Under the pieces are notes generated by a model. That model worked only from the letters and a program-made list of their open reading frames with translations, had not been told where the DNA came from and made no database searches. The position numbers were made by a program, and so were the translations under genes. DNA of 5,124 nt from the IMG/VR virus record IMGVR_UViG_2695420708_000002. The stretch is one strand, 5' to 3'. Of the stretch, positions 1,407 to 5,095 are shown piece by piece. The stretch's first letter is position 1. Every line of letters starts with the position of its first letter. Origin of the DNA: a virus (lineage: Duplodnaviria > Heunggongvirae > Uroviricota > Caudoviricetes).

Positions 1407-1438
1407 TTTTTTTGCAAATCACAAAGTCCATTTAATGA

Positions 1439-1460
1439 GCCTCGCGATGCGGGGCTTTTT
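1439..1460 (+). terminator. Rho-independent terminator after the lysis cassette
   Basis: GCCTCGC (1439-1445) / GCGGGGC (1449-1455), one G-U pair, 3-nt loop, then TTTTT (1456-1460). Confidence 0.45.
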
Positions 1461-1607
1461 GCAATAAATGCGTACCGCAACGCATGTTTTTTACACCGAA
1501 CCTGCCCCTTTGGAATGGGCCTTTGAGGATACCAGTTAGTGCTGGCGAGCCTCGGTGGGCTGGTTTCCTGTGCGGCAAAGGTTCATTTCAAAGAGTAGGT
1601 ACACGCT

Positions 1608-2105
1608 ATGAAATCATTAACCCTCTTCAATCAACCAATTCGTATCGGTGAAGATGGCATGATCTGCCTCACTGATATGTGGAAAGCCAGTGGTAAAAGT
1701 GAATCTGAATCGCCTTACCACTACCTGCGAAACAAGCAGACCAAAGAGTTCTTAGCCGAGCTGGAGAAAAACCACGAATCTGTGGTTTTTACTGAGCGCG
1801 GTGTACACGGTGGAACATATGGCGGGAAGTTTGTTGCTTACGATTATGCGGCTTGGTTAAACCCCGGGTTCAAGTACGCGGCCTATAAAGTCCTCGATGA
1901 CTACTTCACCGGAGAACTTCAGCATCGCAACAGCTTAAGTGCGCAGCTCAACATGAAATGTCATGAATTTGACCAGAAGAAAGACATGGCGAGCTTCTGC
2001 GGACAAGGGCTGGCAGCATGGCGCTATACGAAGCCAGTGTTGGTCGCTGAGATTAACTCCCTGGCTAACCAGCTGCAGATTACGATCCCCGGGCTTCCGG
2101 GATGA
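1608..2105 (+). CDS. KilA-N domain-containing phage protein (putative DNA-binding / antirepressor-like), 165 aa
   Basis: The N-terminal ~100 aa follow the remembered KilA-N pattern (IRIGEDGMICLTDMWKASGK ... LRNKQTKEFLAELE ... GGTYGG ... AYDYAAWLNPGFKYAAYKVL). Family assignment is from memory, not a profile search. Stop TGA overlaps the next ATG (ATGA at 2102-2105). Confidence 0.6.
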   Translation: MKSLTLFNQPIRIGEDGMICLTDMWKASGKSESESPYHYLRNKQTKEFLAELEKNHESVVFTERGVHGGTYGGKFVAYDYAAWLNPGFKYAAYKVLDDYFTGELQHRNSLSAQLNMKCHEFDQKKDMASFCGQGLAAWRYTKPVLVAEINSLANQLQITIPGLPG

Positions 2106-2359
2106 GTGATCATGTTATTGAATGCGCCTCCAGAGCGGGGCGCGACTTCTCAGAGTTCATGAAAGGCGAGAAGGGCATGATGGAAGCATTGGCCTCGGTG
2201 GATGAGTTTGGCGAGCAGCTGCGCCTCAACGGCTGTGTCAATCATCACTTTGTTAGCTACATGATGCGGAACTCGATCATGCAGGCATTCATGGACATGG
2301 CAAAAGCCGAGAGGAAAGAAGAGCGCCGGCGTAAGCGAGCGGAAGCAAAAGCGAAGTAG
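2102..2359 (+). CDS. Hypothetical small protein (85 aa), Met-rich with a basic Lys/Arg C-terminal tail; translationally coupled to the KilA-N gene
   Basis: ATGA start/stop overlap with the upstream gene; C8, C45, H48, H49 could form a metal site; C-terminus KAERKEERRRKRAEAKAK. No recognisable family. Confidence 0.5.
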   Translation: MSDHVIECASRAGRDFSEFMKGEKGMMEALASVDEFGEQLRLNGCVNHHFVSYMMRNSIMQAFMDMAKAERKEERRRKRAEAKAK

Positions 2360-2367
2360 CCATTACA

Positions 2368-2389
2368 AAGCCCATTTACGGGTGGGCTT
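2368..2389. other. Hairpin just downstream of the 85-aa gene (possible terminator or RNA structure)
   Basis: AAGCCCA (2368-2374) / TGGGCTT (2383-2389) with 8-nt loop, preceded by CATTACAAAG; no strong T-run follows, so terminator function is uncertain. Confidence 0.3.
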
Positions 2390-2656
2390 GATAATGAAAC
2401 CGGAATTTATTCTGGGCCACCAGTTAACGGCAGTACCACGAAACAACCCAAGCCAGTAAGTGGGGAAATAACACCGGCAGCCACTGAAAGATGAACCTCC
2501 TGCCTTATGGCAAAAAAGATTCTTTGTGGTGGCGGACTGATGGAAAGACATCCCAATTTCAGCCAAACATTGAAGGAGTTGTTATGTCAGCAGAAGGTTT
2601 CAATAACCCATCAAAATTCCGGGATGAGTGGGATAGCAGCGTAAAGAGTAAGTGAT

Positions 2657-2784: not shown

Positions 2785-3057
2785 TAGACTGGCCCCCTGA
2801 ATCTCCAGACAACCAGTATCACTTAAATAAGTGATAGTCTTAATACTAGTTTTTAGACTAGTCATTGGAGTACAGATGATTGATGTCTTAGGGCCGGAGA
2901 AACGCAGACGGCGTACCACACAGGAAAAGATCGCAATTGTTCAGCAGAGCTTTGAACCGGGGATGACGGTCTCCCTCGTTGCCCGGCAACATGGTGTAGC
3001 AGCCAGCCAGTTATTTCTCTGGCGTAAGCAATACCAGGAAGGAAGTCTTACTGCTGT
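2785..3057 (+). mobile_element. IS2 (IS3 family) remnant: left terminal inverted repeat plus the 5' part of orfA; the rest of the element is deleted
   Basis: Starts TAGACTGGCCCCCTGAATCTCCAGACAACC..., matching the remembered IS2 left end; continues into insC coding sequence; similarity stops abruptly after CTGCTGT at 3057 (IS2 is about 1.3 kb when complete). Confidence 0.85.
2876..3057 (+). pseudogene. insC: Truncated IS2 transposase orfA (InsC), N-terminal ~60 codons only
   Basis: [61 protein letters not shown] matches the remembered InsC N-terminus (HTH region). After 3057 the reading runs into unrelated Rz-derived sequence and stops at 3085. Confidence 0.8.
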
Positions 3058-3420
3058 AAGCGCGACAAAAACGCAAGAGAACTGAAGCTGGCGAACGCAA
3101 CCATTACTGACATGCAGCAGCGCCAGCGTGATGCTGATGCACTCGATGCTAAATACACGAAGGAGTTAGCTGATGCGAAAGCTGAAAATGATGCTCTTCG
3201 GCGCAAGCTTGATAATGGTGGTCGGGTGCTCGTCAAAGGAAAATGCCCTGTGCCATCCTCAGCCGAAACCTCCAGCGCCTCCGGCATGGGCAATGATGCC
3301 ACCGTCGAACTCTCTCCAGTTGCTGGACGAAACGTTCTCGGTATCCGGGACGGAATTATCCGCGACCAAACAGCACTGAGAACGCTTCAGGAATACATCA
3401 GGACGCAATGCCTTCGATGA
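3058..3420 (+). pseudogene. Rz: Second Rz (lambda-type i-spanin), 5'-truncated at the IS2 junction; N-terminal TMD missing
   Basis: In-frame translation from 3058 gives [51 protein letters not shown]..., close to remembered lambda Rz from about residue 37 on; C-terminus [11 protein letters not shown] parallels the first Rz ([11 protein letters not shown]). No start codon or TMD remains. Confidence 0.8.
3173..3379 (+). CDS. Rz1: Second Rz1 (lambda-type o-spanin lipoprotein), apparently intact, embedded in the truncated Rz
   Basis: ATG 3173 with SD AAGGAG (3160-3165) and 7-nt spacer; [21 protein letters not shown]... with lipobox VVGC; Pro-rich [11 protein letters not shown]; resembles remembered lambda Rz1. 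Likely non-functional in lysis without its Rz partner. Confidence 0.7.
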
Positions 3421-3617: not shown

Positions 3618-3620
3618 ATT

Positions 3621-3748
3621 GCCATTACAAAAGCCACTTCCTACAGAGTGGCTTTGATAATGGCTTATACCCTACACGGGATAACTTAACTGATATCCCT
3701 TTTAACGGATAAAGGTATTCAAGCCTGACACATCATGCGCTGTATCGT
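3621..3748 (+). repeat. Copy 2 of the 128-bp direct repeat; uninterrupted, continues into unique sequence
   Basis: Matches 2657-2784 with about 4 mismatches by eye; begins right after the terminator T-tract. Confidence 0.8.
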
Positions 3749-4235: not shown

Positions 4236-4730
4236 ATGGATCGAGAGTTAAAAAATCTGACGCTGAATATCAGTCAACTGGCGGCACTGTCAGGTGTACA
4301 TCGCCAGACTGCTGCGGCAAGGCTGCAAAATCTACCCGTTGCAGGGGGGCATGAAAGCAACCTCAAGCTTTATCGGGTGGTTGATATTGTGTCGGCATTT
4401 CTGGCATTACCACCGCCGGTTGCAGAAGGCGAAATGGACGCGCATGAGCGCAAAGCCTGGTATCAGTCTGAACGTGAGCGTCTTAAGTTCGAACAGGAAA
4501 CGGCACAACTCATTCCGGCCAGTGATGTCAGACGGGAGTTTGCCATCTGGGCAAAAGCGGTCGTGCAGGTGCTGGAGACATTACCGGATATTCTTGAACG
4601 TGACTGCGGTCTGCAGCCTGCCGCTGTGAGCCGTGTTCAGTCCATTATTGATGATCTGCGCGATCAGATAGCCCTGCGGGTGACTGAAGCAGGTGCGGAT
4701 GATGAGGAGGAATTACAGCAGGAGGAGTAA
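4236..4730 (+). CDS. Terminase small subunit (Nu1-like, putative), 164 aa
   Basis: First gene after the cos-like site; SD GGAG at 4227-4230; N-terminal HTH-like NISQLAALSGVHRQTAAARL; acidic tail DDEEELQQEE; stop overlaps the next ATG (TAATG at 4728-4732). Function inferred from position and architecture, not from recognised sequence identity. Confidence 0.55.
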   Translation: MDRELKNLTLNISQLAALSGVHRQTAAARLQNLPVAGGHESNLKLYRVVDIVSAFLALPPPVAEGEMDAHERKAWYQSERERLKFEQETAQLIPASDVRREFAIWAKAVVQVLETLPDILERDCGLQPAAVSRVQSIIDDLRDQIALRVTEAGADDEEELQQEE

Positions 4731-5095
4731 TGCTGAATCAGGAAACCGCAAAGGCAGCACGAACCGATTCAGGTTATATCCTTCGCGCACCGAGACGAAT
4801 GCGGGTTGCTGATGCCGTTGCTCAGTATATGCGGGTGCCCATGGGGGCAGGGAACTCAGTCCCGTGGGATCCGCTGGTGGCACCGTATGTTATTGAGCCG
4901 ATGAACTGCCTGGCCTCGCGTGAATACGACGCAGTGATATTTGTTGGCCCGGCACGAACCGGCAAGACTATCGGCCTGATTGACGGCTGGGTGATTTACA
5001 ACGTGATTTGCGATCCTGCTGATATGCTGATTATTCAGATGACGGAGGAAAAAGCCCGCGAACACTCCAAAAAACGACTCGCCAGAATGAGGTAG
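4730..5095 (+). CDS. Terminase large subunit (GpA-like ATPase), N-terminal 121 codons ending at an in-frame TAG; possible pseudogene
   Basis: Walker A P-loop VGPARTGKT at the position expected for GpA-family terminases; translationally coupled to the small subunit. The ORF stops at TAG 5093-5095, far short of the ~640 aa expected; the same frame stays open to the window end. Confidence 0.55.
   Translation: MLNQETAKAARTDSGYILRAPRRMRVADAVAQYMRVPMGAGNSVPWDPLVAPYVIEPMNCLASREYDAVIFVGPARTGKTIGLIDGWVIYNVICDPADMLIIQMTEEKAREHSKKRLARMR

Follow-up and report, generated by a model that had tools for sequence, protein, structure and literature searches.

HkbL-type small genes paired with Bro-network regulator genes in temperate phages of the Enterobacterales

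A small gene in the late region of a lambdoid prophage was analyzed together with its upstream neighbor. The best explanation is that it comes second in a mobile accessory ("moron") cassette, which consists of two genes and is carried by temperate phages of the Enterobacterales; the first gene encodes a member of the Bro network, a domain-swapping protein network (PMC10111431). The pairing was surveyed in 171 loci of the small gene, collected from IMG/VR, GTDB genomes, GenBank phages and assemblies. In all complete loci of this heavily redundant set, in which about 150 loci share one arrangement and about four partner types and three insertion-site classes are represented, the upstream gene was a Bro-network regulator without exception, and the small gene started -8 to +2 nt from the stop codon of this same-strand gene. 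The small gene is already known as a long-catalogued, uncharacterised phage accessory gene. The literature search found no paper on the small protein or its function.

The small gene and its place in the window

The window, by which the whole 5124-bp stretch of analyzed DNA is meant, corresponds to the late region of a lambdoid E. coli prophage in a degraded state. Its first positions (1-48) are the terminus of an element, presumably IS1, which has a median of 10 repeats per E. coli genome and lies just 5′ of the late leader. Genes for a P21-type holin (239-454), lysozyme (454-951) and Rz (948-1406) follow, and a +1-frame ORF embedded in Rz (1162-1353) was read as Rz1 on position alone. Between Rz and the cassette lie two tandem intrinsic-terminator-like hairpins (1437..1492, + strand), the first at 1437-1457 with a U run and the second at 1468-1485 with U6; the region 1430-1495 has a dG of -21.5 kcal/mol. 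At the equivalent site of mEp235, a rho-independent terminator is annotated. These hairpins divide the two-gene cassette from the lysis genes. The first cassette gene (1608..2105, + strand) encodes a 165 aa homologue of hkbK with a KilA-N domain (residues 9-101, Pfam E 1.3e-15) and an ORF11CD3 domain (residues 109-161, Pfam E 2.4e-13). It matched phrog_129 and phrog_10441, was 96-100% identical to hkbK-type genes of HK620, ECP1 and Stx phages, and gave a weak domain-level match to the PADLOC candidate PDC-S22 (E 1.2e-8). The small gene (2102..2359, + strand) comes next. Right after its stop codon there is a stem-loop (2361..2396, + strand; dG -17 kcal/mol, z -2.95), which lacks a U run and is one of a hairpin family repeated in the window; it is a possible 3′-end or terminator structure. 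Further downstream are an IS2 fragment (2786-3058), a truncated second copy of Rz (3112-3420), a DUF1441 gene (4236-4730) and the first 121 codons of a gpA-type large terminase gene (4730-5095). Because the element terminus lies upstream of the late leader, the cassette of this window may be silent. Since IS elements have degraded the prophage, and its small gene is one among hundreds of near-identical copies, the window itself has small biological weight.

As the initial annotation described, the small ORF starts with ATG and encodes 85 aa, and the 4-nt ATGA start/stop overlap with the upstream gene (2102..2105, + strand) is true, with the upstream TGA at 2103-2105. C8, C45, H48 and H49 are all present, together with H4, a position that is occupied by R in most family members. 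The eight Met residues counted before are the internal ones; nine are found with the initiator (positions 1, 20, 26, 27, 54, 55, 60, 64 and 66). Such a Met content is unusual by chance (P = 6e-4 for at least 9 of 85 at 2.8%), and the whole family shares it, 102 full-length members averaging 9.6% Met. The tail AKAERKEERRRKRAEAKAK (residues 67-85; codons 2300..2356, + strand) had been called poly-basic. It is basic, with 5 K, 5 R and a net charge of +6, but 4 E are interspersed, so that it is a mixed-charge rather than a purely polybasic segment. Among 103 family members, the mean net charge was +5.9 for the tail and -1.7 for the core. At the very C-terminus, family members differ in length by (AK)n, and the basic character is kept.

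Comparison with homologues of 56-91% identity gave dN/dS values of 0.05-0.2 with synonymous sites near saturation. By this substitution pattern, purifying selection acts on the small ORF, which is a real gene and much more than a chance ORF. Conservation of the ORF across related prophages, on which the initial annotation had made its reading depend, was likewise found, the frame being held across genera down to 56% identity. The lack of a recognisable Shine-Dalgarno sequence and of a Pfam family would fit a chance ORF within a conserved non-coding or RNA region, a reading of negligible probability. It is refuted by the substitution pattern, and the maintained frame, a full-length PHROG match and a confidently predicted fold argue against it as well, as does Rfam, which gave no RNA family in or around the small ORF.

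No family had been recognised for the small protein from its sequence. This held for Pfam, NCBIfam and PADLOC, where no credible match was found (YqzE at E 0.063, in the tail only; QatB at E 0.022), but not for PHROG, where residues 1-85 matched positions 1-85 of the 85-position profile of PHROG 875 (function unknown) with an E of 1.3e-53. A weak link to phrog_4284 (E 3.8e-6) was also seen. Apart from this link, the remote homology search that the initial annotation had called for, run with Pfam, PDB profiles, phmmer and PHROG, identified nothing outside the protein's own family. The profile search of PDB sequences returned 0 matches at E <= 10. Exhaustive phmmer against 1.84 billion representative proteins returned 21 matches, which, save for two low-complexity artefacts, were family members or fragments, with no remote homologues among them. 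A profile search of 5.8 billion proteins recovered the same family alone, in 137-155 protein clusters. All organisms named by the sources of these clusters are Enterobacterales, including Escherichia, Shigella, Salmonella, Enterobacter, Klebsiella, Citrobacter, Leclercia and Rouxiella, and the family is restricted to temperate phages of this order.

Named members of the family are HkbL, the product of HK620 hkbL, HK97 gene 61 (HK97p61) and mEp235 gp60. They differ in nothing material from the copy of the window and share its position too, directly behind hkbK-type or other KilA-N genes. Residues 1-66 of the small protein were 98.5% identical to HkbL by tblastn, in which the low-complexity filter masked the tail; the same identity over these residues was found in phage ECP1, many Stx1- and Stx2-converting phages, Shigella phage Ss-VASD and several Salmonella phages. 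Copies of 94-96% identity were found by tblastn in mEp234, mEp235, mEpX1/X2 and HK446, a copy of 83% in HK022, and copies of about 67% in Klebsiella phages. In the deposited HK97 copy, an additional G (+1) shifts the frame after codon 54; if this frameshifted sequence is correct, the small gene is dispensable for lytic growth of HK97. In bacterial genomes, the small ORF was carried by 427 of 5426 complete E. coli genomes, with 1-3 copies each, and its annotation was always "hypothetical protein". Database "fusions" involving the small protein were inspected and rejected, P0001 being a frameshift, P0136 a deletion and P0004 a chimera with Rz; there was no Rosetta-stone evidence among these three.

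Gene pairing and partner exchange

The initial annotation had taken the ATGA overlap to imply co-expression with the upstream gene and had left it to be seen whether the pairing recurs in homologues. The pairing was kept in every complete locus of the 171, and the -8 to +2 nt spacing supports the proposed coupling. The ATGA overlap itself was present in about 150 of the 171 loci; the HK97-type junction reads TGAtcATG. A few loci had gaps of 45-51 nt, and here the upstream gene was visibly frameshifted. No convincing Shine-Dalgarno sequence precedes the small-gene ATG (ccgggATG), which fits reinitiation coupling. The + strand scan found no sigma-70-like promoter upstream of the cassette and so lends no support to expression of the cassette on its own in the lysogen. 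From the hairpins before the cassette and the missing promoter, the simplest inference is that both cassette genes are late genes transcribed by antiterminated polymerase, or from an immI promoter in P22-like contexts.

The domains of the upstream partner varied at both ends. KilA-N+ORF11CD3 proteins (165-188 aa) were encoded upstream in 152 loci, KilA-N+P63C proteins (242-268 aa) in 12 loci, and pRha+ANT proteins, or pRha with an unassigned C-terminus, in 4 loci; P0158 is a pRha+ORF11CD3 swap. No C-terminal segment was common to these partner classes. The two genes travel together, and the cassette occupied three kinds of site. In lambdoid and HK620-type phages, it lies between Rz and the packaging genes, and in Klebsiella and Enterobacter prophages between the gene for the major tail protein and the tail chaperone/tape-measure genes; both of these sites are in late operons. 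The third site is in P22-like immI regions by the tailspike, with Mnt/Arc-type genes and P22_AR or Bro-N antirepressors. The resulting synteny rule is that the small gene stands behind a Bro-network gene whatever the domains of the latter or the insertion site, and the reverse fails.

Partner exchange was seen at both the protein and the DNA level. Small proteins of 94-96% identity are encoded in HK97 and mEp235 behind an unrelated KilA-N+P63C protein, small proteins of lower similarity behind pRha+ANT or pRha proteins, and both subfamilies of the small protein were found with both KilA-N partner classes. When the window was compared with HK97 DNA, Rz and the terminator (948-1460) were homologous at 91% and the stretch 2117-2552 at 96% (94-96% with mEp235 included), and the Bro gene between the homologous blocks was unrelated to that of HK97 and mEp235. 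The second block is a mosaic segment (2117..2552, + strand) made up of the small gene from codon 6 on and about 190 nt 3′ of it, which puts the recombination junction at about codon 6 of the small gene. The sharing of this segment with HK97 and mEp235 next to an unrelated Bro gene shows that the small gene and the Bro gene are separate recombination modules.

KilA-N+ORF11CD3 proteins of 51-88% identity to the upstream protein also occur without the small gene, in a Pantoea prophage (88%), in Erwinia phage phiEt88 (51%), in Cronobacter and Yersinia, and in Pseudomonas phage D3, whose orf11 we take to be the source of the ORF11CD3 domain name. The ORFs found 3′ of KilA-N in Yersinia, Pantoea and Cronobacter were considered as distant relatives of the small protein and rejected (hmmsearch E > 0.5, other PHROGs). 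Co-inheritance of the small protein with a KilA-N+ORF11CD3 partner was not found, as the KilA-N+P63C swaps demonstrate, and KilA-N+ORF11CD3 proteins did not need the small gene, as seen in Pantoea, Cronobacter, Yersinia, phiEt88 and D3. With partner swaps and lone KilA-N homologues, the two genes also do not form the obligate co-evolving pair of type II toxin-antitoxin systems. Because the partner is swapped freely and KilA-N homologues occur alone, the small protein would be a companion of the upstream proteins at class level and not a co-evolved partner; it is unlikely that the small protein has co-evolved as the heterodimer partner of the KilA-N protein of the window, or that the two are a toxin and its antidote. 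A functional tie to Bro-type proteins in general is the simplest reading of the exceptionless rule. The suggestion that the small protein is a partner or regulator of the KilA-N protein thus survives in part: a Bro-network gene is always upstream, but the relationship is not specific to this KilA-N protein.

Predicted fold and the Cys/His positions

AlphaFold2, run with a 36-sequence alignment, gave a model with a pLDDT of 92.8 and a pTM of 0.73. Helices were predicted at residues 3-20, 26-42 and 48-84, the last one running on into the charged tail. The small protein is thus confidently predicted to be an antiparallel three-helix bundle, the third helix of which has an Arg/Lys/Glu-rich extension. 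The BFVD structure search returned nothing at E <= 0.001. The structural neighbors of the bundle were generic and uninformative, being three-helix-bundle interaction modules (e.g., MIT domains) and four-helix-bundle sensor segments. For helix-turn-helix proteins, no Pfam family matched the small protein at E <= 1, and such an identity was rejected on the model, in which the helices are 17-37 residues long with 5-residue loops and there are no short recognition helices or tight turn.

The most conserved stretch of the family is residues 7-24 (ECASRxGRDFSEFxxGEK; ECASRAGRDFSEFMKGEK in the window, codons 2120..2173, + strand), which covers helix 1 and loop 1. Within it A9, S10, G13, R14, D15, F16, S17, F19, G22 and K24 are invariant. 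F36, Q39, L40, G44 and C45 are the next most conserved, followed by M54 and R75, the latter invariant within the C-terminal helix. The presence of many invariant polar residues on one helix suggests that helix 1 and loop 1 are a candidate interaction surface. For the basic tail helix, contact with nucleic acid, which had been proposed from its composition, would be a candidate role only. In composition, ERRRKRAEAKAK resembles arginine-rich-motif RNA-binding peptides of the lambda N type. No conserved RNA partner for the Arg-rich helix was identified, and the leader sequences differ between contexts.

The initial annotation had also pointed to a possible Cys/His site. G44 and C45 are invariant in the family and lie in the GCVNHH segment (residues 44-49; codons 2231..2248, + strand), which makes up the second loop and the beginning of helix 3; C8, H48 and H49 are each replaced in some members. 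C8 is changed to S in the most divergent lineage (P0122, P0142), together with H49 to G, and to Y or R in single clusters. H48 is replaced by Q in six clusters and by Y in one, and H49 by N, G, Y or Q in other clusters. The Cys and His positions are no better kept than their non-ligand neighbors. For a Cys2His2 site, C45 was the only invariant one of the four ligand positions, the spacing of C-x36-C-x2-H-H gave neither CxxC/HxxxH knuckles nor a zinc-finger profile, and no Pfam zinc finger matched the small protein at E <= 1. A canonical Zn site is hence unlikely, and the zinc-finger idea was dropped as a working hypothesis.

Metal binding in a broader sense, with structural Zn(II) held by C8, C45 and H48/H49 or Cu(I) held by Cys, His and Met, is compatible with any of the functional readings discussed below and we consider it quite improbable. 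The CCHH combination is found in 109 of about 125 full-length members, and from the predicted topology C8 at the helix 1 N-terminus, C45 in the loop before helix 3 and H48/H49 where helix 3 begins should all lie at one pole of the bundle. The joint change of C8 to S and H49 to G in one lineage and the unusually high Met content would also fit. Yet C8, H48 and H49 are replaced in otherwise intact members, non-ligand neighbors are conserved equally or better, CxxC/HxxH knuckles are absent, and adjacent His residues on a helix rarely bind one metal together. Moreover, Pfam gave no metal-site match, and AlphaFold2 folded the helical bundle confidently without metal. The Met residues match the hydrophobic periodicity of helices 2 and 3, and Met richness is most simply explained by a Met-rich bundle core.

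Possible functions of the pair

Several known phage systems resemble the cassette in part. Arc of P22 is a ribbon-helix-helix repressor encoded upstream of ant. In the P22 immI region (mnt/arc/ant), as in the cassette, a small protein is co-transcribed with a protein of the Bro-network/antirepressor type, and several relatives have their cassettes inside an immI-like region with Arc/Arc/P22_AR_N or Bro-N genes, by tailspike or tail genes. The small protein differs from Arc in being a predicted three-helix bundle that is encoded downstream and has no Arc or ribbon-helix-helix match. In P1 icd-ant, a small ORF overlaps the antirepressor gene and is translationally coupled to it, with icd preceding ant. 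Here the order is reversed, the small gene being second, and no sequence similarity was detectable; the family of the small protein has no remote homologues among 1.84 billion representatives. BstA, a prophage protein of 307 aa that acts in abortive infection, contains a KilA-N-like domain; the element that confers immunity, aba, is DNA (PMC8585504). Both loci are prophage accessory loci built on a KilA-N-type DNA-binding protein with a second element beside or within; they differ in that BstA has another C-terminal domain and aba is a DNA sequence and not a protein. No sequence relationship of the small protein with BstA was found.

We tentatively propose that the small protein acts as a cofactor or modulator of Bro-network DNA-binding regulators, to which it is translationally coupled, a reading that may well hold but is far from assured. 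The first gene would supply the Bro-network DNA-binding regulator, here a KilA-N+ORF11CD3 protein of the HK620 hkbK type, and the small protein would probably be made by termination-reinitiation coupling at a fixed ratio to it. The invariant polar face of helix 1 and loop 1 (S10, R11, R14, D15, S17, E18, E23 and K24) could make protein contacts, and the basic helix could contact nucleic acid. The small protein may then act as a generic cofactor on a target or process shared by Bro regulators, such as DNA, a repressor or a host complex, and would bind no single Bro domain. Because both the N- and C-terminal domains of the partner vary, direct binding to the upstream protein is not favored, and the linkage could be purely regulatory. 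Counting against the cofactor reading, close KilA-N+ORF11CD3 homologues work without the small gene, the HK97 copy is frameshifted, the loci are redundant and the fold neighbors are generic.

Two other readings were weighed against the cofactor reading. The small protein could be an accessory effector with its own target in the host or a competing phage, riding on the transcription and translation signals of the Bro gene, so that the pairing reflects how the cassette is built and moves and no shared function. This reading is somewhat unlikely. In its favor, the Bro gene was exchanged while the small gene was kept at 94-96% identity, with a junction at about codon 6; both subfamilies occur with both partner classes; and Bro proteins of 88% identity function without the small gene, the small ORFs behind them being unrelated and belonging to other PHROGs. 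If the small gene were a mere hitch-hiker, it should also appear behind other late genes, whereas none of the complete loci among the 171 had the small gene behind a non-Bro gene, across four partner architectures and several sites. Alternatively, the small protein might be an antidote, immunity factor or negative regulator that restrains a toxic Bro protein, or one active in abortive infection or defence, at a ratio fixed by the tight coupling. P1 KilA is reported to be toxic, and the KilA-N protein of the window weakly matches PDC-S22. A precedent is BstA, a KilA-N-like protein by which prophages exert defence and which has a cognate element for self-immunity (PMC8585504), but that element is DNA and not a protein. 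In addition, a toxin binder should co-evolve with its toxin, yet near-identical small proteins accompany unrelated Bro proteins and close KilA-N+ORF11CD3 homologues occur alone; the small protein itself had no credible PADLOC match, QatB included. On balance, we consider a restraining role improbable.

A bolder proposal, to which we give little credence, is that HkbL-type proteins are universal, domain-independent adaptors or immunity factors for Bro effectors and that the cassette is an inter-phage conflict module acting in anti-repression, exclusion or abortive infection. Specificity for the target would come from the exchangeable Bro protein, and the small protein, which stays constant, would add a shared activity such as tethering to nucleic acid by the Arg-rich helix or self-protection of the carrier phage. 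If true, this would give the first functional handle on the large, poorly understood Bro/KilA-N/Rha network. Few accessory genes of temperate phages are as common, and as little understood, as those of the Bro network (KilA-N, Rha, Ant, Bro-N and related), and Stx-converting phages, too, carry the cassette. The hkbK/hkbL genes of HK620, or the pair of an Stx phage, are a tractable two-gene system for a late-expressed Bro function.

Composite structure and end regions of the window

An IS2 left-end fragment was found at 2786-3058, being 100% identical to annotated IS2 and carrying HTH_Tnp_1 in the N-terminus of orfA. The fragment breaks off at ~3058 and directly adjoins a second Rz segment (3059-3420), a 5′-truncated gene with 97% identity to the HK620 Rz and its downstream region. 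Therefore, the window combines the late regions of two prophages, connected via an IS.

At the left end, positions 1-48 form the terminus of a high-copy element; these 48 bases occur with 100% identity at 72,276 places (median 10 per E. coli genome), and we take them to be an IS1 inverted repeat. This terminus adjoins the late-operon leader (49-238), which contains a terminator hairpin at ~104-127, indicating that the lysis genes and the cassette (the KilA-N+ORF11CD3 gene and the overlapping small gene) have probably been severed from their Q-dependent promoter. A weak, sub-threshold Rfam match to Trp_leader at 30-121 probably corresponds to the same terminator hairpin. At the other end, the gpA-type large terminase gene (4730-5095) ends after 121 codons, covering only the beginning of the ATPase domain, and the sequence from the break to the end of the window looks foreign. 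The broken terminase gene is therefore a further sign of a defective prophage.

Repeats and palindromes around the cassette

An imperfect long palindrome family, of the form GCCATTACAAA(A)GCC..loop..GGCTTTGATAATGGC, is present in three copies in the window (2361-2396, 2657-2700, and 3621-3664). When folded as RNA, the copies gave -17, -22, and -25 kcal/mol, with z down to -7.3, and no U run was found at any of the three. They could act in lambdoid late regions as 3′-end/terminator structures or as palindromes that bind a protein. Two of the three are held by a direct repeat of 129 nt, 2656-2784 and 3620-3748, whose copies are 97% identical. A 23-codon ORF, MSAEGFNNPSKFRDEWDSSVKSK, lies downstream of the cassette at 2584-2655, with a good Shine-Dalgarno sequence, GAAGGAGttgttATG, ahead of it; in pairwise comparison, the segment around it (~2553-2681) was missing from HK97, mEp235, and HK620. 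The exact 14-mer TTCCGGGATGAGTG occurs twice, at 2095-2108, where it spans the junction of the KilA-N and small genes, and 522 nt downstream at 2617-2630. We roughly estimate that chance would produce ~0.05 repeats of this kind in 5 kb. The repeated 14-mer may be microhomology from illegitimate recombination, or a coincidence.

Small-gene variants and recombinant proteins

The deposited HK97 copy of the small gene (HK97p61, 77 aa; 2501-2760 of the HK97 locus L002) carries one additional G after codon 54 (TACATGGATGCGG versus TACATGATGCGG), and the +1 frame retains the intact normal C-terminus of the small protein, MRNSIMQAFMDMAKAERKEERRRKRAEAKAK. Either HK97 is a viable phage with a genuine frameshift here, or the additional G is an error from early sequencing. 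The extreme C-terminus differs by (AK)n units among the collected small-gene loci (L022, L031, L075, and others; equivalent to window 2339-2356), with variants ending in AEAKAK, AKAKVK, AKAKAKVK, and AKAKAKAKVK. Many database variants carry frameshifts in the purine-rich tail-coding stretch, which is therefore a slippage-prone tract.

Recombinant proteins were also found among the database clusters. In P0004, the C-terminal part of Rz is joined to residues 1-79 of the small protein at RRRKR|LQVAAT. In P0136 (22 member sequences), a deletion has fused the whole small protein in frame behind residues 1-81 of a KilA-N+P63C protein. P0158 carries the ORF11CD3 C-terminus under a pRha N-terminus and, over 77% of its length, shows 97% identity to the window's protein. 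Together, these three recombinants illustrate the recombinogenic nature of the cassette region and of the Bro network of domain-swapping phage regulators.
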